This document shows, one piece after another, positions 1 through 23,787 of a stretch of DNA of 32,000 nt. Numbering within the stretch: the first letter of the stretch is position 1; each line of letters opens with the position of its first letter. The translations under genes and the position numbers were made by a program. Source of the stretch: Candidatus Heimdallarchaeota archaeon (GTDB taxonomy: Archaea > Asgardarchaeota > Heimdallarchaeia > JABLTI01); contig JAUWKS010000013.1 of the NCBI GenBank assembly GCA_030614005.1, positions 31,466 to 63,465 of the forward strand. Reading direction: 5' to 3'. Under the pieces are notes generated by a model. The model worked only from the letters and a program-made list of their open reading frames with translations, ran no database searches and was not told where the DNA came from.

Positions 1-3000
1 TTTGATATTTACTAGATGTGCTTGTTGTAGTGTGCTGGCGAGGTTCCCTTCTTGGAAGGCTTCCAAAGATTTCTTGAGGGCTACAAATTTCTTATTTTTC
101 AAAACACGCTGATCGTCAACTTTATCAAAAATTGCTTGAATGGCATTGAAATCCCAAATACGCAGTTTCTTTAGTGACGTTCTGATTAGTAGATCTAAGA
201 ATAAGTTAATGATTTTTGAATCAGAAGTAGCTTCAAGATATTTGAACATTAAACCATCATAAATCTTGGTTTCTTCAATAAAGCTTCCAGTTCGCTCATA
301 AATATCTGTTGCAGCAAAAACATATGGAATAGAATGGAAAATCAAATCTTTCTTACCAGAATTAAGCATTTTTTTAGCTTGGTCTAGTGCCTGAAATGCA
401 ATATCTTCTGCTTCTTCGATTTTATCTCTATTTGCATAAACCATTCCAGGAACAAGATAACAAATATATCCATCTTCAATGGGTACAGTGTTGAAGAGAT
501 TCTGGATAGTTGTTGCTATGATTTGAATGCTATTTTCATCTCCAGAGAGCTCATAATTTTCAAGAGAAGTCGAATAATAGTATAACCCTTCTTTGAATTT
601 CTCTTCTTTAATTTTCTGATCGCCAATACTTGCACTTGTCATTGCAACCTCAGCAATTAAACGATTATTTCCATAGATTTCATATATTCTTCCAGCAGCT
701 TTTAGGAAATTGATAGCGTCACTTAATTTCTTCTTATCTGCTGCTAGTTGACCTAGAGCTATACATTGTTTGCCGATTTCAATAATTCTTTCTTTTTGTC
801 CTAAATCATTCATTGCCGTTGCCAAAGTTTCCATAAGGACATCAAGGCCCTTGAAACGTTTCTTCGTCAAACTCTCAAGTATGGCCAATAGGTTATCAAT
901 TATTGCAATTCCAATTTGATGTTGTTTTGATATACTTGCTAATCTTAATGCTTGATCCTCTATTCTAATGGCTTTATCGAATGTGATTGCTTTTTGTAGC
1001 AATAATTCAGCAGTTTGATGCCAAGCCATAATCATATTGGCAAAATCTAAATTGCCAAGAATTGATAGTGGATGATTTGTGTTGATAATTGAATTGAGTA
1101 ATTTGATAATATTTTCTCTAGCAAAAATTACTAGGTCGATATTTGCTTCTTCAGTAATATCTTGGTTTAACTGAATTAATGGAAAAGTTATAACAGAGTA
1201 GAAGTCTTTTTCTGATAGGTTAATAACTAAATTAGTAACTATACTTAGTAGTTTTCTACCCTCATTTCTAGTTGACGATTCAATGCAAAGTATCCTACCA
1301 GTTTGAGCTAAGGTGCCAATGAACTTTCTAATTTCTTTAGTATCATTGGTTTCTAGATAAATACTCCTTGCCTGATTTACAGTTGCATCAAGTAATTCGA
1401 GTTTTTTATTTTTTACTAAATAATTAACATGATTCAAATAATTATTTGCAATATCAATCTTTAATTTCGAATTACCCGCTAAATCTGCTGCAGCAAAAGC
1501 AGCATCTAAAATACCTCTAGCTATTCTTGGTCCACGTGAAACAAGTAATTTCTTACCATAAACAGTTAGCATCTTGGATAAATTCTCAAGGCCTTTCTGA
1601 TTTTTCGTTTGGGTCAAGAATTTAGTGGTAGAATCAACAAATTGCCCAATGAGTTCCAGTCGGCTTTCTTCATCTTCTATACTCTTTTCATATTGTGGTC
1701 CTAATACTTGGGAAATAGTTTCAAGATAGTTTGCTCCCGCTCGAGATGCTTTTTCGAGTTTCGTTTCATATTGGATGATAAGCTCACCGCCGGCATTCAT
1801 AAATTGAATGCCTAAAATTGGATCTCCTTCTTTAATTAATTTCAAACCGAAATCAATACATCTATTTCCTACTTTAGGTAGATAATCGTTTAAACCTGCT
1901 CTTGTAGAAAGTTCCATTGCTTTTGAGAAATAGAGCGCTGCAATATCGAAATTGCGTTCGTTGAGCATTTTACCGCCTTGATTGATGAAGATTTCAGAGA
2001 TAACCATTATTCTTTCAGTTCGTTGAAGGAAGATATACAATCCTCCAGCAAGTTCAACTAAAGGCATTCCAGCATTAACGTTATTATTATCAATTTGTTT
2101 TCGACCTTCTGCTATGAGCTCATTAACAACATCTAATGATTCTTTGGTCAAATTCCCTTGAGCCAAAAGGTGAACACCATTTCTAAATGCTTCAACAGCA
2201 GCAGCCATTTCGTTTCTTTTTACAAGCGTTCGACCTAAATCAATACTGATTTGACCTATGCCTATGAGGTCATTTATTGTTCGGAGGATACCGATGCCAG
2301 AAGCAAGAATAACATGAGATGCTTCAAGTTTCCCATCCTCTCTAAGAATAATGCCTTGATTTCTACAAACTGTAGCTAAATGCTTTATTGAAGATTCATC
2401 AGTGATTTGAGCAATTTTTTCCATACCCTTATCAATTAATCGACTACCACCAACATTTCTTCCATATGAAATCAAGAGTGCTGCTCCTACAAAACACTTC
2501 TCAATACCACCTGTTATTTCTCCTTTAGCAAAGAGAGCATCAATCGCTGTGTTGATTAAATGGAACCCTTCCTTGGCTCTTTCGACTTCAATATAATTCT
2601 TTGCGTGGGTAAGAAGCTTTTCAGTGCCTAGGAATAAATCATCTGCAGAGGTCATTGCTTCAAAGGCAATTGGTAACATTTTGAAAGCGGTGTCATATTC
2701 TCTCTTTTTCTGGAGATTTAAAGCGATTTTGAATATTGTATTTGCTAAATGGATTAAGCGATTTTTCTTTCCAGTTCTTCTAAAGAGAGTAAAGCTTTCT
2801 TTGAATAATTCTATAGATTTCTCATAATCTTTAATTTCATAAAATGTTTGACCTTCAATCATACAGAGACGGCCAGTGAATTCTTCACCAACAATTGCAC
2901 CAATAGTGAGTGCAACTTCCCATAATCGTAATCCAGCCTCTGGATTATTACTTTTGATATTTGCTGTACCAAAAGCCATGACCTTTAGAGCAGTTTCTTC

Positions 3001-6000
3001 AACTTCTTTCAAACGATTATTTTGTTCCAAAATTTTAGCTATTTTACCATAACAGAGAATAGCATTTTCTATACTATTTGCTGCCATTAATTGATCTACT
3101 AACTCTTCCAAAAATTGAATTGCTTCTTCTACCTGACTAATTTCAGTTAAAATTTCTGCGCCTCGAATACCCCAAGAAACAGCAACTTCATTGTTCTTCT
3201 CTTTGAGAAACTCTTCACAAGTGTTGATACAGATGCCTGCAGCTTCGATATGGTTATTCACACTTTGGAGAATTTCAATAGTGAGATTAATGTAATTTGT
3301 TGCAGGGAGAAGTTTCCTTTCAGCAATTAAATTGCTTGAAAAAACTGCTACTTTATTTGCTAGCTGACTGATTTGTTTCAAATTTTGGGCTTGAATATAT
3401 ACTTTGTAGGTTTTTTCTAGACTAATTAAAGCTGCTTCATGCAGATCTTCTTTTGAGTAGACTTCCCATTCAGTAAGTTTAATCTGTCCATTTAGTTTCA
3501 AATCATTAATTTGCAATGCGAAATTCTCAGCTACCTGATAGAATTCTTGACTTCTTGCTGCTCTTACTGTTCCATCTAATTTTATTGTGGGAATACTACC
3601 TCGAACAATTTCTGTTGCTATATCGACTATTTGTGTGATAAGTTTAGTCAATTCTTTGTTTTTATTTAGACTTAGATAAATGTCACCCGTATTTCTGATT
3701 TTGGCTAAACCCTCTTCCAAATTATTATTTACAATATAATATTGACCCATTGAGTTATGTATTTCAGCAATTGCTGAACGGTCTTCTATAATAACGAATA
3801 ATTTTATAGCTCTTTCTAAAAGATTTATGCCAAATTGAGGTGTGTGGCTATGAAGGAATTTTTCACCTTCCATTCTTGCTGTTTGAGCTCCTTGAATAGT
3901 TTGCTCTGCATTATTCAAAGCTTCAATACCCAGAGTAATCATATTATTCGATTCAGGAAGCATATCTCTTTGGAAGAGCTCTCTTCCTTTTTCAATAATT
4001 TCTGCACCAACTATAGCTGCATGTCGAACTGATGAAGAAATATACAAATCAATTGAATTTCCATAGTATTTTGTTGAAAGCTCATATTGTTCTTTTTCTA
4101 AAAACTTTTTAGCAACTTCATAAGATCGACCAGCTTCCGCCTCTGTGTTTACTGCACCATCTATCTGAATGGCAACTTGATATCCTTTTTCAGCGTTAAC
4201 AAAATCACCTTTATTCAGTATAGTTGTGTATGTTTCAAAGCAATGATTAGCAACACCAGGATAAATTTGATCTTTTTCGGGTATTTTATTTTTTACTGAA
4301 GCAAGACGGTAATACTCAAAACTTTTTTCGTGATTATCATGTTCAGAATGATATCTTGCTAATGCAGAGAGAATTCTCGCTGCTTCTTCAGGTTGATCCG
4401 CTTTAGTGAACTCAACAGCTCCCTCCTCAAAAAGAGGGTCTGCATATTCAGTAAGGTTCTTTCGTAAGAAATCTGCAGCAAAACTTACCATAATTTTAGC
4501 TGCACGTTCATATTCTCCTGCTTCAGAAAGCACTTTGCCACTCCCTCGAGCCGAGGCAAGTGTGATATCATTTAGTTCTTCAAGATTGAATTTTCTAACA
4601 TTCCCTATGTGATCCTCAATAGTTTCTACGGCTGAATTAATATTTCGTTTAATTAATGCTCTCGAGAGTGTTTCATTAAACTCACAGGCAGCACTCCACA
4701 ATCCTTTGGCATTAATAATATCTCCAGTTTTTATACACTGCTCTGAATACTTTGTGGCGAGAAGAACTAATGGTTTGAATTTTTGCTCTCTAAGTTCTTC
4801 AGGAATTGTTTGAGCAGCAAGTTTCAATCGATCTAATGCAATGTCAAAATGGCCTTCTACTAATAGTTCATCAGCAAGTTTGACATATACATCTGCTGCC
4901 TCCTCGCTTTTCCCTGCTTCAATATATGCTTCAGCTGCTTTTGTTGCTAAATCAATGCCTGTTTGAAGATTTCTAACCTTAAACATAGGTTGCCACGAAG
5001 AATCAAGAGTATCTGCTGCTAGTTCTATTTCCCCTAATTCCATAAAGAACTCCGCACAAAGACGATACATTATCTCAGCATAATGGAAATCATTTTTACT
5101 AAATCGCTCTCGAGCGAGTTGTCGTATTTCACTGGGGATATCCACTCTTTCTTCGCTCTCAGGCAAATCTTTTAGTGGGTCAATCATTTTTTTGAAAGCT
5201 TCAGTGGCTAGTTGGAATTTGTTATATTTTAGTAGAAGCTCTGCTTCTTTCCTATAAACTACTACCTCAAAATTACGATCAATTAATCTTCCAATCTCAA
5301 TTGCAATATAAAAATAGTCTCTGCCAATTGGATATTGCTCTATTGTGTGAAGTTGGAGTCCTAATGAAATAATATTATTCCCAAATTCAATGGTTTTATC
5401 TTTATTACCAATTTCAATGTAATATTCTTTAGCCATATTATAGTAGGGAATTGCCTCTCGATAGAGTTTCTTTTCAAAAATAGCTAATCCAATTAAAGCT
5501 AGCTCACGTGCAAGAACCGTTATAGCTGGAACTGCTTTTCGAGTAATACAGATATCTTTTGCATGTTTAATTAAACGAATAGCAGTGCTATTATTAAAAT
5601 CAACTGCAGCTGCTTTCAAAAGTTGGTTTTCTGGGTCTAAAATTTCAGGAATTAAGCTCTCTATGTGAGAGACAAAATTTGCCATCACATTTTCAGCTGC
5701 TAGGATAATAGTTTCCTTATTATCAGTATTCATCTCAAGAAGTAGCTTAACAGCTTCGTCAAGTGTTTTCTCTCCTTTTTCAGCTTGACCGCTTTCAATA
5801 TATCTTTGAGAGAGTGATGTGTAGAAATCAATTGTGCCAATTTCATAATCAGCTTTTTTATAGAGTACTTTTGCTTTCTCTAAATACTCTTCCCCAATTT
5901 TCTCTTCGTCAGCTCTAACTCTTGCTTTAGATAATATTTGAATGGTATTTTCAATGTAAGCTTTAGCTGCCTCTAGGTATTTTCCTTTTGGATCCTTGCC

Positions 6001-6363
6001 AATTTTTTCATACTGATTTGCAATTGTTTCATTTATTTTGCCTACTAAATCAAACCTGTTTTCCTTTGTCTGGAAAATTATTGCTGCTTTCTCTAAGAAA
6101 TTTTCAGCACTAGTTTGAAATGACTCATATTCCGAATGATCCAGTTTTTCACTTGCATCAATAAAATAATTAATCGTTTGAATCAATATTTTTGAATCAT
6201 TTTTAGTAATTACTGCTTCAGCAATTTCCAGCATTAACCGAGAAGCTTCTTCAAAATTGTCTTTCTCGATAAAAACTTGTATTAACCTAAAGAATTCATC
6301 AACTGCTGCTCTTGTTGAGCCAGAGTTTAAGAGATGGCGTGCTTTTTCAATATTTTCAAACAT
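1..6363 (-). CDS. Giant alpha-helical repeat (TPR/alpha-SNAP-like solenoid) protein, >=2121 aa; 3' end lies beyond the window start
   Basis: Not in the ORF track because it has no stop inside the window. I read the minus frame from ATG 6363 (MFENIEKARHLLNSG...) to position 1 and found no in-frame stop; an upstream in-frame TAG sits at 6388-6390. The protein is a continuous run of helical TPR-like units (e.g. AAEAYIEAGKSEEAADVYVKLA, EEAARILSALARYH, EKSFEYYRLA) with no recognisable catalytic motif or TM segment. Confidence 0.93.
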   Translation of the reverse strand, partial: MFENIEKARHLLNSGSTRAAVDEFFRLIQVFIEKDNFEEASRLMLEIAEAVITKNDSKILIQTINYFIDASEKLDHSEYESFQTSAENFLEKAAIIFQTKENRFDLVGKINETIANQYEKIGKDPKGKYLEAAKAYIENTIQILSKARVRADEEKIGEEYLEKAKVLYKKADYEIGTIDFYTSLSQRYIESGQAEKGEKTLDEAVKLLLEMNTDNKETIILAAENVMANFVSHIESLIPEILDPENQLLKAAAVDFNNSTAIRLIKHAKDICITRKAVPAITVLARELALIGLAIFEKKLYREAIPYYNMAKEYYIEIGNKDKTIEFGNNIISLGLQLHTIEQYPIGRDYFYIAIEIGRLIDRNFEVVVYRKEAELLLKYNKFQLATEAFKKMIDPLKDLPESEERVDIPSEIRQLARERFSKNDFHYAEIMYRLCAEFFMELGEIELAADTLDSSWQPMFKVRNLQTGIDLATKAAEAYIEAGKSEEAADVYVKLADELLVEGHFDIALDRLKLAAQTIPEELREQKFKPLVLLATKYSEQCIKTGDIINAKGLWSAACEFNETLSRALIKRNINSAVETIEDHIGNVRKFNLEELNDITLASARGSGKVLSEAGEYERAAKIMVSFAADFLRKNLTEYADPLFEEGAVEFTKADQPEEAARILSALARYHSEHDNHEKSFEYYRLASVKNKIPEKDQIYPGVANHCFETYTTILNKGDFVNAEKGYQVAIQIDGAVNTEAEAGRSYEVAKKFLEKEQYELSTKYYGNSIDLYISSSVRHAAIVGAEIIEKGRELFQRDMLPESNNMITLGIEALNNAEQTIQGAQTARMEGEKFLHSHTPQFGINLLERAIKLFVIIEDRSAIAEIHNSMGQYYIVNNNLEEGLAKIRNTGDIYLSLNKNKELTKLITQIVDIATEIVRGSIPTIKLDGTVRAARSQEFYQVAENFALQINDLKLNGQIKLTEWEVYSKEDLHEAALISLEKTYKVYIQAQNLKQISQLANKVAVFSSNLIAERKLLPATNYINLTIEILQSVNNHIEAAGICINTCEEFLKEKNNEVAVSWGIRGAEILTEISQVEEAIQFLEELVDQLMAANSIENAILCYGKIAKILEQNNRLKEVEETALKVMAFGTANIKSNNPEAGLRLWEVALTIGAIVGEEFTGRLCMIEGQTFYEIKDYEKSIELFKESFTLFRRTGKKNRLIHLANTIFKIALNLQKKREYDTAFKMLPIAFEAMTSADDLFLGTEKLLTHAKNYIEVERAKEGFHLINTAIDALFAKGEITGGIEKCFVGAALLISYGRNVGGSRLIDKGMEKIAQITDESSIKHLATVCRNQGIILREDGKLEASHVILASGIGILRTINDLIGIGQISIDLGRTLVKRNEMAAAVEAFRNGVHLLAQGNLTKESLDVVNELIAEGRKQIDNNNVNAGMPLVELAGGLYIFLQRTERIMVISEIFINQGGKMLNERNFDIAALYFSKAMELSTRAGLNDYLPKVGNRCIDFGLKLIKEGDPILGIQFMNAGGELIIQYETKLEKASRAGANYLETISQVLGPQYEKSIEDEESRLELIGQFVDSTTKFLTQTKNQKGLENLSKMLTVYGKKLLVSRGPRIARGILDAAFAAADLAGNSKLKIDIANNYLNHVNYLVKNKKLELLDATVNQARSIYLETNDTKEIRKFIGTLAQTGRILCIESSTRNEGRKLLSIVTNLVINLSEKDFYSVITFPLIQLNQDITEEANIDLVIFARENIIKLLNSIINTNHPLSILGNLDFANMIMAWHQTAELLLQKAITFDKAIRIEDQALRLASISKQHQIGIAIIDNLLAILESLTKKRFKGLDVLMETLATAMNDLGQKERIIEIGKQCIALGQLAADKKKLSDAINFLKAAGRIYEIYGNNRLIAEVAMTSASIGDQKIKEEKFKEGLYYYSTSLENYELSGDENSIQIIATTIQNLFNTVPIEDGYICYLVPGMVYANRDKIEEAEDIAFQALDQAKKMLNSGKKDLIFHSIPYVFAATDIYERTGSFIEETKIYDGLMFKYLEATSDSKIINLFLDLLIRTSLKKLRIWDFNAIQAIFDKVDDQRVLKNKKFVALKKSLEAFQEGNLASTLQQAHLVNIK

Positions 6364-6596
6364 CGTTAGTTTTACAACCCACAAAGCCTATAATATAGTG
6401 CAAGATCTTTTTATTTCTACTTCTAATTGAATATAGACTATTTACTTATATATTTGACTCTTATCCAAATAAAAATTGTGTTTAATGATATTCTTCGAAG
6501 ATTTAAACATCTTCAAATAGGCAAAGTAATTTCCCATGGTCAGTATTTATATTAGATGCTTTATTATGTTATACAATTAACATAGGTGAATATACA

Positions 6597-7986: not shown

Positions 7987-9762
7987 CTAAACTTGACTCC
8001 TATAGACAATTGCATTCGGTACTCCCGCAATATTAGCTACGACTATTAATCCGTGCTGTGAAAAGAATTCATGAATGTCAAAGAAATATAGAGTCACTCT
8101 TTGAATATCAGTCGTTCGAACAACAACATACGTACCTTTTATTGAGAATTTTTCTAAAGTATCACTATCATTCAGTCTCCATATTGGACTTGTAAATTGT
8201 GAACGTATGAAAGTAATTGAAATATTTTTATTCAAATAAGCGTAACCACCTGTATACCAAACCATTTCTAGAACAATAAGCCTTTCAGAATCTTCTTGTT
8301 GCCCTACCCAGTACATTGCATTACAGATGCCTGAATTCCATTTCCACATATAGTTTTTCTTAACTAATCCCATATACAATGAAGATGTGCTTAACATAAC
8401 CAGAAGTAAACCTAAAACAACATATTGAAACTGTTTTCTTTTAACCAATTTCGAAAATTTGTAAATACCATTAGCAACGAAAAGCATGCCAAGGGGAAGA
8501 AAGGTCATTATAAATCTAAATTCTTTATGAGCAATGGATGAGAAAATTGCTAACCAATAGAACATTAAAATTAAAACGAATACTTTTGACTTGGTCTTTT
8601 CCTTAAAAATAAGTCCAAAAATGAGTAAGAAAAAAAAGATGAATATGAAGATATAGGCGAAATCAGTGAAAAATCCGGCAAAGTATTGGAACCAGGGAGA
8701 CGTACCATGATATGCACTATTGCCTTCCACAATATTATATCGAAAGTAATTGATAGGCGAATGAAGAAAGGTACCCCAAGTAAATAAATCTAATAATCCC
8801 TGGAAGAGAACCATCAAAAATGCTCCCCCACAAAAACTTGCTAGAGTTGAAAACGAATTAAGATATTCACCTCTACTTAGAGGTTCATATGTTTTCTCTT
8901 TCTTCTTAGCTAACGTTCTAAATGAAATAGCTATTTTTCTGCAAACATCTACAATAGGTTTGTATAAAATTGCAATTGCTAGAGGTATCCCCATAAGAGC
9001 TCCTGGAAATCGTATCATAAAAGATAGTCCTAATGAAAGTCCGGCAATTGCAGAAAGAGTGACTTTCCTCTTCGCTTTTTCATGTCTTATCGCCTTATAA
9101 ATTAGAAAAATGCTTAGAAAGAGAAAATCAGAAGACAATGAATCTGTCATAGTTCGACTCGCCCAATAAGGGAAAAACCACCAAGTACCACAAATAAATG
9201 CACTTATTAAACCAACGATTTTATTAAACATCTCTTTGCCAAATAGATATGAAACTACAACAGTAATTATTGAGAAAAGAGAAAGAAATAATCGAGCCGA
9301 ATAAATCAAAACCAATGGATCTGTTATTCCGAAGAGCATTAGAAATTTATAGACCCCAACAAGTATTAAAACAAAGAACCATGACCTTGCTCCACCAAAT
9401 CGATAAGCAGTGTTGTATTCCCAAGGAATGGTTTGACCTGTTCCATATTCCCCATATATCCAATAATGAATCATTTCAAGCGATTGAAAGACTTCATCAG
9501 GATGAACAAACCCTTGGGATTCTTGTGCAGCTAAGAGACGAAGAAGAATGGATAAAATGATAATAACTGTCAAAGGTAAATAATTGAATATTTTTTTGAA
9601 AAACGTTGTACTAACAACATCAGAGAAATTCTTTCTAGTGGGCATGTGTTCATTCACTTTTTCTTGATCATGAATGGAGAATTGAGTTTTAGTAGGTTGG
9701 TCTCCATCGAGCAAAAGCCATTCTCTCCAGTTTAGGTATACAAGGTTAGAAATATTAACCAT
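7987..9762 (-). CDS. GT-C fold glycosyltransferase family 22 (PIG-B/GPI10-, ALG9-like mannosyltransferase), multi-pass membrane protein
   Basis: FVHPDEVFQSLEMIH resembles the PIG-B first luminal loop (FVPDEYWQSLEVSH, recalled); also PWEY...RSW, SRTMTD and HKEFRFI; about 10-12 hydrophobic segments. The true start may be the downstream ATG (MPTRK). Confidence 0.85.
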   Translation of the reverse strand: MVNISNLVYLNWREWLLLDGDQPTKTQFSIHDQEKVNEHMPTRKNFSDVVSTTFFKKIFNYLPLTVIIILSILLRLLAAQESQGFVHPDEVFQSLEMIHYWIYGEYGTGQTIPWEYNTAYRFGGARSWFFVLILVGVYKFLMLFGITDPLVLIYSARLFLSLFSIITVVVSYLFGKEMFNKIVGLISAFICGTWWFFPYWASRTMTDSLSSDFLFLSIFLIYKAIRHEKAKRKVTLSAIAGLSLGLSFMIRFPGALMGIPLAIAILYKPIVDVCRKIAISFRTLAKKKEKTYEPLSRGEYLNSFSTLASFCGGAFLMVLFQGLLDLFTWGTFLHSPINYFRYNIVEGNSAYHGTSPWFQYFAGFFTDFAYIFIFIFFFLLIFGLIFKEKTKSKVFVLILMFYWLAIFSSIAHKEFRFIMTFLPLGMLFVANGIYKFSKLVKRKQFQYVVLGLLLVMLSTSSLYMGLVKKNYMWKWNSGICNAMYWVGQQEDSERLIVLEMVWYTGGYAYLNKNISITFIRSQFTSPIWRLNDSDTLEKFSIKGTYVVVRTTDIQRVTLYFFDIHEFFSQHGLIVVANIAGVPNAIVYRSQV

Positions 9763-13764: not shown

Positions 13765-14532
13765 CTATGTATAAAAGTTGCTCTTTTTCCTTGCTTGTCG
13801 GGGTGTTCCAGCAGACATTTCATTTGTCTGAAGTGCTAATTCTGAAAGTTTCTTTTTAATGGATTCAGATTGCTCAATCAAGGTTTCAACATTGATATCT
13901 AATTCTTTCAAGTCATTGATAATTTTAACAAGAGAGGCAGCCCCACCAGGATCAGGGAGTTCAGGTCTTGTGCCTACAAGAAACGCATAACCATCTATAT
14001 CACTTATCATGGTTTTATTTAGAATTGCACCAGCAAACCCTTTGATAAAGCCACTTTTCAGAGGAGGAATTTTCAGCTTCTCTGCTTTATTTTTAATTTC
14101 GGGTTCGGAAACCATATACACTTTCCCTTCATCCTTTCTATTGAGATAACCAAATCCATCAAGGGTTATAATTTCCTTTGCTCCATGCCCTTCTGCCCAC
14201 GACATAATAGCATTGGAAATAAAGTATGCTGCTTCTGGAGAAACAGCACTTTCACCAATAAATACTGCAATTTTCAAATCCTTCTTCCCCATAATCCGAT
14301 AGGGATGTCTCAGATACCCATCTAGGAAAACAGCAACAGGTGGTATTGCAACGCCTTCAATAAAACCAATGGTTTTTAGTTCCAATTTTTCACTTATATG
14401 TTGGGCAGCAATCGCTCCAGTTAATCCCATACCTGGAAAACCAACAATAACTGTTTCTACATCAAAATCAGTTTTACAGATGCATCGAGCATACATCTCA
14501 CTACTTTCAATTAAACTTCTATCATAGTTCAA
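13765..14532 (-). CDS. PAC2-family proteasome assembly chaperone (archaeal PbaA/PbaB-like)
   Basis: IVGFPGMGLTGAIAA, EIITLDG, GFIKGFAGAIL, PDPGGAA, INVETLIEQSE. Confidence 0.9.
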   Translation of the reverse strand: MNYDRSLIESSEMYARCICKTDFDVETVIVGFPGMGLTGAIAAQHISEKLELKTIGFIEGVAIPPVAVFLDGYLRHPYRIMGKKDLKIAVFIGESAVSPEAAYFISNAIMSWAEGHGAKEIITLDGFGYLNRKDEGKVYMVSEPEIKNKAEKLKIPPLKSGFIKGFAGAILNKTMISDIDGYAFLVGTRPELPDPGGAASLVKIINDLKELDINVETLIEQSESIKKKLSELALQTNEMSAGTPRQARKKSNFYT

Positions 14533-19661: not shown

Positions 19662-21644
19662 GTGACCACGCCAGCTAAGGGAGATAAGATAAAAACAAAA
19701 ACCCCCTACAAGACGCAACCCGATCTTGATAAAATCATTTCAGGTGGTAATTGGTACAAAAAACTCATTGAAACAATGGATGATGGAATTATTGCTACAG
19801 ATATGAATAGAATTATTATTTATGTTAACCCTGCTGCTTGTAAAAAATTAGGTTATACTGAAGAAGAATTACTTGGAAAAAGCTCTTTAGAAATTGTTGT
19901 TGAAGAAGATCGCGCTAGAGTCACTCGAGAATCAGCAATACGCTTTAGTGAAAAAGTCTCTACACAATATGAAATTACTTTTAAAACAAAAGTTGGCTCA
20001 AAATTTCCCGTTCTGATTAGTGGTTCACCAATTTTGGATGAGAATAATCAAACACTTGGCACTTATGCATTAATTACTGATATCAGAGATAGAAAGGTTG
20101 TAGAAAAAGAGTTACGGGATAAGAATAATGAATTACAAAATCTCTATAACAATTTATTGGAGTTATATCAGCAACTGGGTGCAATAATCGCAGAGACAAC
20201 TACAGTACCCTCAACTGAAATTTTGCTTTTCACCTCCAAGCATTGTGTGTATTGTGCACCTGCAGAAGAGGTCCTACAACAGGTACTTGCTTCTTACGCT
20301 GGAAAAATCACTTACAGAAAAGTGGATATTGATGAAGAGCCTGAGTTGGCAGCAGAACATGAGATTCTTTCCCTCCCAACAATTGCAATTGGCGAAGAAC
20401 AACTAACTTCTGTTCCTGATATCTATAAATTACATTCAGCATTATTCAGTGCATTAGTGCCCGAAGAAAAGTTCAGAAGAACAAGACAAGAATTAGATAA
20501 TATTATTGATAATTCACCTGTTGCTATTTTTACTATAAATTCTAAAGGAACGGTTACCAAAAGTAATCCTCTTGTCGGGATACTGACCGGTGTGGAATTA
20601 CAAGACATTACAGGTCATGATGCACTAAATCCAGAAAAGAATGGAGAATCACTATTTCCAAAATCACTCATTAAGCTTTTTAAGAAAGGCCTAAAAGGTA
20701 AGACAATAACTGAAGATCGTTTACGTATCAAAGACTATTCCTCTGAGAAAGATGATCCATTTTCAATTGTTAGTTTCAAAGTAGTTCCAATGGCTACTAA
20801 AGAGGGAGAAATAAACGAAATTCTTGTCTTATGTGAAGATGTCACTAAACTGGCTATGCAAGAAGAAGCATTGAGTGAATCCTATACCAAATTAGAAGAC
20901 CTGAATGACAAGCTTTTACAATTAAATAAAGATAGGTCGAATTTTGTTGAACTTACTTCGACTAAACTTTTAGAACCATTAAGAAACTCAAGAGAGTTGA
21001 TAGATACTATTCTTCGTGGGCAATTAGGCATGCTGAGTGAAGAACTATTTGGCACAATGGAATTTCTGAGAAATAACTTAGAAAAAGTATCAAAAAGTAT
21101 TTTTGGCATTATAGAATTTTCAAATATAGAAGCACAAGACTTCAGTTTGAAACTTGATGAACATAACCTTAAGGATCTTATTTCACAAACAACTAGTTTA
21201 GTTGGGTCTGTAGGTATACAAAAAAGCTTTATTGGGACAATTGAACTTTCTAATGAAGTCACTGTTTGGTGTGACTCTGAACAAATTATTCGTGTTTTAA
21301 GAAACTTAGTTTTGAATGCTATCCAATTCACTCCTATAAATTGTAACATTCACTTTTCAGCTGAAGATAAGAATGGTCTTGTTGCTGTTTATTTGAAGGA
21401 TAACGGTTTTGGTATTGCTAAGAAAGATCTTAAAAGAATATTTGAGCAATATGTAAAAACTGATCCCGAAAGTTCTGGGTCGGGTTTAGGGTTATCCATG
21501 GTAAAAAGTTTAGTGGAAGCTCACGGAGGAACCGTTAGAGCAGAATCGGAAGGCAAAAACAAAGGTTCAACGTTTATGTTTACTTTGCCAACCAATAAAG
21601 CATCATATGAAAAACTAATCTCTAAGAAAGAGAAATCAAATTAG
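19662..21644 (+). CDS. Cytoplasmic sensor histidine-kinase-like protein: PAS-PAC, thioredoxin-like, PAS, His-less HisKA-like, HATPase_c
   Basis: PAS (IETMDDGIIATD..YVNPAACKKLGY..EELLGK) and PAC (GTYALITDIRDRK); CVYC plus KVDIDEEPELA..ILSLPT; second PAS; N box NLVLNAIQF, G1 DNGFGI, G2 GSGLGL. Confidence 0.9.
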   Translation: MTTPAKGDKIKTKTPYKTQPDLDKIISGGNWYKKLIETMDDGIIATDMNRIIIYVNPAACKKLGYTEEELLGKSSLEIVVEEDRARVTRESAIRFSEKVSTQYEITFKTKVGSKFPVLISGSPILDENNQTLGTYALITDIRDRKVVEKELRDKNNELQNLYNNLLELYQQLGAIIAETTTVPSTEILLFTSKHCVYCAPAEEVLQQVLASYAGKITYRKVDIDEEPELAAEHEILSLPTIAIGEEQLTSVPDIYKLHSALFSALVPEEKFRRTRQELDNIIDNSPVAIFTINSKGTVTKSNPLVGILTGVELQDITGHDALNPEKNGESLFPKSLIKLFKKGLKGKTITEDRLRIKDYSSEKDDPFSIVSFKVVPMATKEGEINEILVLCEDVTKLAMQEEALSESYTKLEDLNDKLLQLNKDRSNFVELTSTKLLEPLRNSRELIDTILRGQLGMLSEELFGTMEFLRNNLEKVSKSIFGIIEFSNIEAQDFSLKLDEHNLKDLISQTTSLVGSVGIQKSFIGTIELSNEVTVWCDSEQIIRVLRNLVLNAIQFTPINCNIHFSAEDKNGLVAVYLKDNGFGIAKKDLKRIFEQYVKTDPESSGSGLGLSMVKSLVEAHGGTVRAESEGKNKGSTFMFTLPTNKASYEKLISKKEKSN

Positions 21645-22925: not shown

Positions 22926-23615
22926 CTATCTCATCCATTGTGCTACTTTGACTCCTTTCCAACGTTTTATCTCGCCGTTTTTCATACCGATGAAATCAGG
23001 AATCATTCTGAGGATAATGAGTATTGTGCACCCCCAACTAAAAACCATTATTGGCCACGTATGCCAATGAGTTCCATCAAGCAAGGAAAATTGTCCTACT
23101 AGATAGAAAATAGTGTATGTTGTCGCAACGGATACTGTTGCCATTATACCTGCTATTCCACTATATCTGATAATTATTAACCAAACAAGTAATGAAACCC
23201 ACCAAACAAGGATACCCCATGGATTGATTACAATCATGACACCAGTTAATACTGCAAATCCTTTGCCTCCTTGAAATTTCATCCAAGGCATCCAACAATG
23301 TCCCGCAAATGCTGCAATACCACACAGAGCAGCTAGTAAATCCAAATTCACTGGTTCTAAAGATGTTAGAGTACTGAAAAAGATATATCGAGTTAATAAT
23401 GTGCCAAGAAAGCCTTTTGTAATATCTAAAGACATAGTTAAAATCGCCCAACTATAACCCGCTGTTCGTACAGTGTTTCTAGTGCTAACGGAACCTGAAC
23501 CTTCATTTCGCACATCTTTTCCAGTAACTAATTTAACAATAATCCAAGCAAATGGAATCGAACCGAAAAAGAACCCAATAATTGGTGCTAAAATATAAGG
23601 ATAAATCATCTGCAA
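22926..23615 (-). CDS. plsY: PlsY-family glycerol-3-phosphate acyltransferase homolog with divergent motifs
   Basis: FGSIPFAWII, DVRNEGSG, DITKG, GH...FQGGKGFA; multi-TM, 229 aa. Motif 3 is degenerate (see findings). Confidence 0.85.
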   Translation of the reverse strand: MQMIYPYILAPIIGFFFGSIPFAWIIVKLVTGKDVRNEGSGSVSTRNTVRTAGYSWAILTMSLDITKGFLGTLLTRYIFFSTLTSLEPVNLDLLAALCGIAAFAGHCWMPWMKFQGGKGFAVLTGVMIVINPWGILVWWVSLLVWLIIIRYSGIAGIMATVSVATTYTIFYLVGQFSLLDGTHWHTWPIMVFSWGCTILIILRMIPDFIGMKNGEIKRWKGVKVAQWMR

Positions 23616-23787
23616 AATCTCCTGTTATTAGCACTACTATTCTTTATCTTTAAATAGATTTTTCACAGACGCTATGATATGGTTATTACGGCTAATTCTT
23701 TAACAAAATTAATTCTTTGGCAAAAACTAAAAAAGCAGAAGAGCTTAAAGAGGATAACAAACCAAATCAAAAGAGAGACTGATTATC

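Follow-up and report, generated by a model that had tools for sequence, protein, structure and literature searches.

A PlsY-family paralog from a Heimdall family of Asgard archaea with a largely kept donor site and an apparently rebuilt acceptor pocket

In the PlsY acyltransferase of Aquifex aeolicus (PDB 5XJ5-5XJ9) the acyl-phosphate donor is held by a phosphate hole formed by the backbone of motif 2, together with His92 and Thr41, and Thr41 is one of just two side chains that contact the donor (PMC5700162). The acceptor, glycerol 3-phosphate (G3P), is clamped at its phosphate by Ser35, Arg45, Lys104 and Asn180 and bound at its 2-OH by Ser142 and His177; catalysis is substrate-assisted, neither His177 nor Asn180 being a catalytic base, and Asn37 is a proposed stabiliser of the oxyanion (PMC5700162). 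PlsY homologs have already been published from Asgard archaea, where they are repeatedly cited as a sign of a capacity for ester lipids of bacterial or eukaryote type (PMC6431249, PMC6737245, PMC13400652). Here we describe one such homolog, named A1, in a stretch of 32,000 nucleotides (the window; contig JAUWKS010000013.1 of assembly GCA_030614005.1) from a Heimdall-group Asgard archaeon whose genome is a 3.6-Mb metagenome bin, 90% complete with 3.4% estimated contamination. The Heimdall group holds the closest archaeal relatives of eukaryotes, and Villanueva 2017 is said likewise to cite Asgard PlsY homologs toward bacterial or eukaryote-type ester lipids. An earlier note made from the letters of the window (the original prediction) had called A1 a bacterial-type PlsY with its catalytic motif 3 rewritten.

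The A1 gene and its substrate sites

The minus-strand open frame that holds A1 spans 22926-23615, with an alternative upstream start at a TTG at 23615. We place the start at the ATG at 23609, since the orthologs are 221-228 amino acids long with an N-terminus of MIYPY or MYQY and since a GGAG lies 9 nt upstream of this codon. The gene and its motifs, with residues in Aquifex numbering, are as follows.

22926..23609, minus strand: coding sequence of A1, a PlsY-family paralog (clade A, orthogroup 1) of 227 amino acids, stop codon included in the coordinates
23466..23501, minus strand: motif 1, GSGSVSTRNTVR, in which Ser35, Asn42 and Arg45 are kept and Asn37 is changed to Ser, Gly39 to Ser and Thr41 to Arg (translation, alignments and residue table)
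23259..23300, minus strand: motif 2 region, HCWMPWMKFQGGKG, in which His92 and the Gly102-Gly103-Lys104-Gly105 phosphate hole for the acyl-phosphate are intact (translation and clade A alignment)
22968..23009, minus strand: motif 3, RMIPDFIGMKNGEI, in which His177 is changed to Met (23004-23006), Asn180 to Asp (22995-22997) and Arg183 to Gly (translation and alignment to 5xj5)

A1 matches the Pfam family PF02660 (G3P_acyltransf) with an E value of 2.2e-36 and 125.9 bits, against a cut-off of 24.1, over profile positions 1-157 of 164. The TIGR00023 model, the PlsY equivalog (EC 2.3.1.275), gives 100.1 bits, which is below its cut-off of 137.2. AlphaFold2, run on a 44-sequence alignment, gave a model with a pLDDT of 92.8, and Foldseek searches with this model returned only Aquifex PlsY structures at E < 0.001 (TM 0.73/0.82 to 5xj5); a search of the ESM Atlas found generic PlsY clusters only. 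A1 is a member of PF02660 in the broad sense, with a predicted seven-helix PlsY fold. The family assignment of the original prediction is borne out, but its "bacterial-type PlsY" is not a lone bacterial-type copy: the genome has six divergent paralogs, and this one falls in a clade specific to its lineage.

Residues were mapped in two ways, by a MAFFT alignment of 44 sequences and by a profile alignment with 5xj5, the crystal structure of Aquifex PlsY (E 4e-56, chain residues 4-196); A1 and the Aquifex protein are ~27% identical. Both proteins have the same seven-helix fold (by model for A1), His92, Asn42, the Gly-Gly-Lys-Gly hole, Ser35 and Arg45, whereas Asn37, Gly39 and Thr41 of motif 1 correspond to Ser40, Ser42 and Arg44 of A1, Ser142 to Gly154, and His177, Asn180 and Arg183 of motif 3 to Met202, Asp205 and Gly208. 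In motif 3 the RMIPDF of A1 aligns opposite RHRENI of the Aquifex protein, and the motif 3 Glu stands one position earlier than Glu189. The proline after His92 is likewise displaced by one residue, and A1 has a conserved longer C-terminal tail, G-E-I-K-R-W-x-G-x-K-x-x-Q-W. Sorted by ligand, the acyl-phosphate site is kept (His104, Gly114, Gly115, Lys116 and Gly117 are all present and invariant in the clade), apart from the change of Thr41 to Arg44. The phosphate clamp for G3P retains Ser38, Arg48 and Lys116, equivalent to Ser35, Arg45 and Lys104, and has Asp205 in place of Asn180, while both ligands of the 2-OH are replaced, Ser142 by Gly154 and His177 by Met202.

These replacements are shared by the clade to which A1 belongs. 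Throughout a 35-sequence alignment of clade A the residues Ser40, Ser42, Arg44, Asn45, Arg48, His104, Gly114, Gly115 and Lys116 are invariant, and the members fall to ~35% identity, yet the residues of the phosphate hole do not vary. Every clade A sequence has Arg at position 41, Ser at 37 and Asp or Glu at 180 (Aquifex numbering). Position 177 is freer, being M, L, H, W or Y across the clade: Met or Leu in A1 proteins (once His, once Trp), His in orthogroup A2 and Tyr or His in A3. The bacterial-type relatives are different. His is found at position 177 in 122 of the 129 nearest cluster representatives (50% identity), and Asp or Glu at position 180 in none of the 129. Nor did we find a conserved histidine near motif 3 that could substitute for the lost one, as those of DGTHWHTWP vary among the orthologs. 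Taken together, A1 falls short of PlsY proper on four of the features tested: it scores under the equivalog cut-off, and it lacks Asn180, the pair formed by His177 and Ser142, and Asn37. Thr41 of the donor site is replaced as well.

The gene is evidently maintained. A search of 5.8 billion proteins gave 35 orthologs at 53-90% identity, after which the matches drop to 34-36%; those with a name are from Asgard archaea, with the exception of two records that carry the label Zixibacteria. Of 1.84 billion cluster representatives, just two clusters were better than E 1e-29. The ratio of nonsynonymous to synonymous substitution rates (dN/dS) between A1 and its nearest orthologs is 0.09-0.11 at a dS of ~0.5. 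A1 is under strong purifying selection and is a functional gene, and its unusual residues are fixed.

What such changes do individually has been measured in the Aquifex enzyme, where the residual activity is 5% for H177M, 3% for N180D, 5% for T41A and 18% for N37S; N180D raises the Km for G3P 22-fold, and H177M is among the least damaging substitutions tried at His177 (PMC5700162). Two of the A1 residues are also known among PlsY homologs, with Arg41 in 3% of 7,288 sequences (Table 2 of that study) and Ser at position 37 in 6% (PMC5700162). Since His177 and Asn180 bind G3P and neither is a catalytic base, it is the acceptor pocket, and not the chemistry, that appears to be rewritten in A1. As read from the mapped residues, the donor-phosphate hole is intact and the acceptor pocket is rebuilt. 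The description of motif 3 in the original prediction (RMIPDFIGM, with the Met codon at 23004-23006, Asn to Asp and Arg to Gly) is upheld by its placement against 5xj5 and by its conservation in the clade, as are the deviation of motif 1 from its consensus and the intactness of motif 2; what has to be given up is the word "catalytic", as the altered residues are ligands of the acceptor (PMC5700162).

Paralogs, distribution and missing lipid enzymes

The host genome has six PF02660 genes: A1, A2, A3 and three more divergent ones ("B"). A1, A2 and A3 have GSGSVSTRN, GGKG and R-x-[IL]-P-[DE]-F in common. In the maximum-likelihood tree clade A is monophyletic with an SH-aLRT support of 99, with A1 as sister to A2 and A3, and a group of paralogs in the neighbouring family f2, called D, is its weakly supported sister (80). 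A2 and A3 (L003 and L006 of the host genome) share with A1 the Arg41 and the Pro-Asp/Glu-Phe of motif 3, but A2 retains His177, and A3 has Tyr or His at this position and stands downstream of a degV gene, where A1 has Met or Leu. The D paralogs have Arg41 like A1, but Gln177, Asn180 and Arg104. A separate observation concerns family f13, in another class of the phylum (L116, L117), where proteins of ~400 amino acids, encoded two or three in tandem, have a divergent PlsY domain as their first half; these domains read GT[KR]N..N and GG[QRK]G and are without motif 3.

The distribution of these genes was followed in 60 genomes of the class, 12 from the host's own family (f1) and 48 from other families (f2, n=17; f3, f4 and f28 together, n=29; f5, n=1; f6, n=1). 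Clade A was present in 12/12 f1 genomes, and A1 itself in 11/12, with scores of 190 bits or more, and in none of the 48 genomes outside f1, where the best score was 138 bits. A genome scan placed clade A loci in Heimdall or Promethearchaeati bins only, with the exception of one bin that shares the synteny and carries the label Bathyarchaeia. Each f1 genome has 4-11 PlsY-family matches. Outside f1, Heimdall families have a near-canonical PlsY ("C"), which Arg41-type paralogs may or may not accompany; among the copies read from the 29 genomes of f3, f4 and f28 there was no Arg41-type PlsY.

Family f1 is also set apart by the lipid enzymes that were searched for. Glycerol 1-phosphate (G1P) dehydrogenase (NF002022) was found in all 48 genomes of the other families, at E 1e-80 or better, and in none of the 12 f1 genomes, where the only matches, at 33 bits or less, were to generic iron-dependent alcohol dehydrogenases. 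Geranylgeranylglyceryl phosphate (GGGP) synthase (PF01884) was found in none of the 12 f1 genomes, but in f3, f4 and f28 and in 3/17 f2 genomes, two of these three matches being marginal. PlsC-type acyltransferases (PF01553) were found in 29/29 genomes across f3, f4 and f28 and in the single f6 genome, and in 0/12 genomes of f1, 0/17 of f2 and 0/1 of f5. Searching the host genome by tblastn with GGGP synthase, G1P dehydrogenase and PlsC from the same class gave nothing, the best E value being 0.016. A CarS-like cytidylyltransferase is retained (G000:C72:4183-4731).

Clade A proteins are not the only PlsY of the family. A PlsY above the equivalog cut-off, with the motifs GSGNTGFSN ... HRENIQRL, is present in 8/12 f1 genomes, and Dak2 (FakA-like) in 9/12; in seven f1 genomes a Dak2 match and the canonical PlsY share a contig and are within ~2 kb of each other. 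A relative in the same genus (G154; contig C6) has fakA-like, degV and canonical plsY genes in this order on the same strand (L125 5978-8760). There the fakA-like gene encodes Dak2 and the FakA middle domain in 330 amino acids, and the PlsY (L125 5978-6715) reaches 154.6 bits against TIGR00023, above the cut-off. A1 and this canonical PlsY belong to the same family and host lineage and presumably draw on the same acyl-phosphate supply; they are ~29% identical over the N-terminal two thirds, and the canonical gene adjoins fakA and degV whereas A1 stands alone.

The host assembly has 19 DegV/FakB genes, several in tandem (C32, C50, C3). DNA and protein searches found no orthologs in it of any gene of the 12.7-kb region around the fakA-degV-plsY unit of G154, and because the whole region is without a counterpart there, loss of the unit and an assembly gap are indistinguishable. 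The search of the genome for plsX, plsC, gpsA and glpK proposed with the original prediction yielded no PlsX and no PF01553 match, and its remaining hits turned out to be other enzymes: the GpsA match is a PanE-type reductase and was rejected as a source of G3P, and the FGGY kinase was rejected as GlpK, as it passes the XylB cut-off and not the GlpK one. The iron-dependent alcohol dehydrogenase matches were likewise rejected as G1P dehydrogenase, being generic alcohol dehydrogenases. Two GDPD genes are the only source of G3P that we saw in the host genome.

These results bear on how archaeal PlsY matches are read. Asgard PlsY matches are not one thing, as Heimdall genomes hold near-canonical copies together with several rewired paralog clades, and only the near-canonical Heimdall copies should count as G3P acyltransferases. 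Family f1, with no G1P dehydrogenase, GGGP synthase or PlsC found in 12 genomes, offers a concrete case on which ideas about the lipid divide can be tested. Our literature searches brought up no motif-level analysis of Asgard PlsY, nor any account of these clades of paralogs or of a Heimdall family that lacks G1P dehydrogenase.

Possible functions of A1

The changes in motif 3 are genuine and conserved, and purifying selection acts on them, so A1 is best read as a protein of altered specificity. This agrees with one half of what the original prediction proposed, an altered substrate or chemistry; it is the acceptor pocket, and not the chemistry, that seems to have changed. In our preferred reading, to which we give a probability of roughly 0.55, A1 would be an active acyltransferase that depends on acyl-phosphate and has ceased to use G3P in its canonical pose as the acceptor. 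In this lineage the donor would come from a FakA-like kinase working with DegV/FakB carriers, A1 would keep the substrate-assisted transfer described for PlsY, and the fatty acyl group would move from the acyl-phosphate to an acceptor other than G3P in that pose. We infer this donor, mechanism and change of acceptor; the fold, the family, the residues of both sites, the selection and the lineage restriction are as given above.

As the acceptor we would first favour a lyso-glycerolipid such as 1-acyl-glycerol-phosphate, then an acceptor whose head group is cationic or non-phosphorylated and might be held by the new Asp/Glu, and as third choice dihydroxyacetone phosphate (DHAP). The lyso-glycerolipid is attractive because no PlsC-type enzyme was found in f1 and f2, the families with several Arg41-type paralogs. 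PlsC, a lysophosphatidate acyltransferase (PF01553), has an unrelated fold, an HX4D motif and a thioester donor, and is compared here only for the role that A1 might fill, which would be the second acyl transfer on the way to glycerolipids. A wider scenario, which we regard as speculative and on balance doubtful, is that the f1 family gave up the archaeal entry steps (G1P dehydrogenase and GGGP synthase) and makes its glycerolipids from fatty acids through an expanded PlsY set fed by FakA/FakB, with the canonical PlsY performing the first acylation and the Arg41-type paralogs the second, or acylating other head groups. If that route exists, A1 would be the first enzyme of the PlsY fold to use an acceptor different from G3P.

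Several points weigh against a changed acceptor in an active enzyme. The phosphate clamp for G3P still has three of its four residues (Ser35, Arg45 and Lys104), which is compatible with a phosphorylated glycerol as acceptor, and a pairing of Arg41 with Asp/Glu180 might restore the G3P site. The host assembly, 90% complete, contains no canonical PlsY, Dak2/FakA or PlsX, so that no source of acyl-phosphate is shown there. The complementarity of PlsC and Arg41-type paralogs may rest on one or two events, the families being related, and the f6 genome has both a PlsC-type enzyme and an Arg41-type PlsY. The operon context was rejected as a functional lead, as the neighbours of A1 are on the opposite strand and unrelated to lipids.

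The kept clamp raises the possibility that A1 is still a glycerol-phosphate 1-acyltransferase, using G3P, G1P or DHAP, with Arg41 pairing with Asp180 in place of the Asn180 contact, and that it simply serves this organism as its PlsY. His92 and GGKG, too, are retained, the host assembly is without a canonical copy, the two GDPD genes could provide G3P, bacterial PlsY is reported to tolerate both stereoisomers of glycerol phosphate (PMC13400652) and H177M is among the mildest substitutions of His177 (PMC5700162). This we consider unlikely, though deserving of more weight than the explanations that follow: N180D alone costs the Aquifex enzyme 97% of its activity with the 22-fold increase in Km, while five pocket positions are altered together in A1; the score stays under the equivalog cut-off; and in 8/12 f1 genomes a canonical PlsY coexists with clade A, a pattern that speaks for separate roles. 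G1P in particular is an unlikely acceptor, since no G1P dehydrogenase was found in f1. The change could also lie on the donor side, given that Thr41, one of the two side chains contacting the acyl-phosphate, is Arg throughout clade A and that neither FakA nor PlsX was found in the host assembly. The Arg might then adapt A1 to an acyl-adenylate, to an acyl carrier thioester with its phosphopantetheine or to a polyprenyl phosphate, and in the last case perhaps no fatty acid would be transferred. However, no change affects the backbone phosphate hole, His92 or Asn42, Arg41 already occurs in 3% of the PlsY homologs (PMC5700162), A3 and the second A1 copy of some relatives adjoin genes for DegV/FakB, the carriers of the acyl-phosphate route, and FakA-like genes are found in 9/12 f1 genomes, which together make a new donor rather improbable.

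A non-catalytic role, also offered in the original prediction, would make A1 a membrane protein of PlsY descent that binds lipids, regulates or acts as a scaffold. Several of the residues on which the full activity of PlsY depends are indeed replaced, and with so many paralogs in the genome redundancy could release one of them from catalysis. Against this stand the acyl-phosphate site (His92, Asn42 and GGKG), invariant over a clade that reaches down to ~35% identity, the dN/dS of ~0.1, and the fact that Arg41, Ser37 and Asp/Glu180 are fixed, not drifting, in every clade A sequence examined; we hold such a role to be quite improbable, more so than a change of donor. Gene decay, an artefact of annotation or contamination by bacterial DNA could be suspected from the metagenomic origin of the bin with its 3.4% estimated contamination, from the homolog records labelled Zixibacteria and from the one locus labelled Bathyarchaeia. 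The frame is intact, the remainder of the window is Asgard-like, as expected for the archaeal host that had been predicted, and the gene order around A1 is found again in at least 10 Heimdall bins that were assembled independently. This explanation is refuted by the synteny and the dN/dS.

Gene neighbourhoods and other features of the window

The order of genes was compared at 13 loci. Two unknown genes and a small membrane open reading frame (ORF) are followed by A1, a PAS histidine kinase and hydantoinase B and A, and an aldo-keto reductase with an iron-sulfur domain is near A1 in 4/13 loci. The neighbours (hydantoinase A and B, a histidine kinase with PAS and thioredoxin parts and three unknown ORFs) are all on the opposite strand, and because of this A1 is probably transcribed alone. 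One further feature, a promoter region proposed from sequence reading, belongs to the gene.

23610..23680, minus strand: putative promoter and leader of A1, with a TTTAAA box ~40 nt upstream of the ATG and GGAG 9 nt upstream

Some other members of clade A lie close to DegV genes. A3 lies 26 nt downstream of a DegV gene, in a cluster (L036 6484-12576, plus strand; host contig C103) that encodes a PLAT-domain protein, DegV, A3, a DUF2229 protein, a DUF2229/HGD-D-like protein and a BadF/BadG-type ATPase. Three related Heimdall bins (L026 1874-7108, plus strand; L027; L142) have a second A1-type copy, preceded on the same strand by a neutral/alkaline ceramidase (E 8e-134 in the L026 cluster), DegV and a weak match to an alpha/beta hydrolase. 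The DegV-adjacent A3 and this second A1 copy connect clade A with the handling of fatty acids by DegV carriers, though in genomes that are closely related. A ceramidase is, to our knowledge, unusual in an archaeon. The gene occurs in 4/12 f1 genomes and not in the host genome, and as the cluster is limited to three closely related bins we treat the ceramidase link as a lead only.

The A2 locus (L031 4259-9724, plus strand; host contig C8) has a different setting, conserved in 9 bins on one strand: an ArsR-type helix-turn-helix gene, A2 and a DUF4234 membrane gene, with an Epimerase_2 gene among those that follow. Downstream of A2 and DUF4234 are also two genes that we take, by eye, to encode the formyltransferase Ftr and the cyclohydrolase Mch.

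Within the window itself, the histidine kinase next to A1 (19662-21644, plus strand) combines PAS with an inserted thioredoxin/glutaredoxin-like domain; it is convergent with A1 and syntenic in most relatives. At one end of the window an open-ended ORF of > 2,128 amino acids (1-6384, minus strand) matches only SNAP-like and TPR profiles. Two more minus-strand genes are eukaryote-like and typical of Asgard genomes, an Alg9-like GT22 mannosyltransferase at 7987-9762 and a gene similar to the PAC2 proteasome assembly chaperone at 13765-14532.

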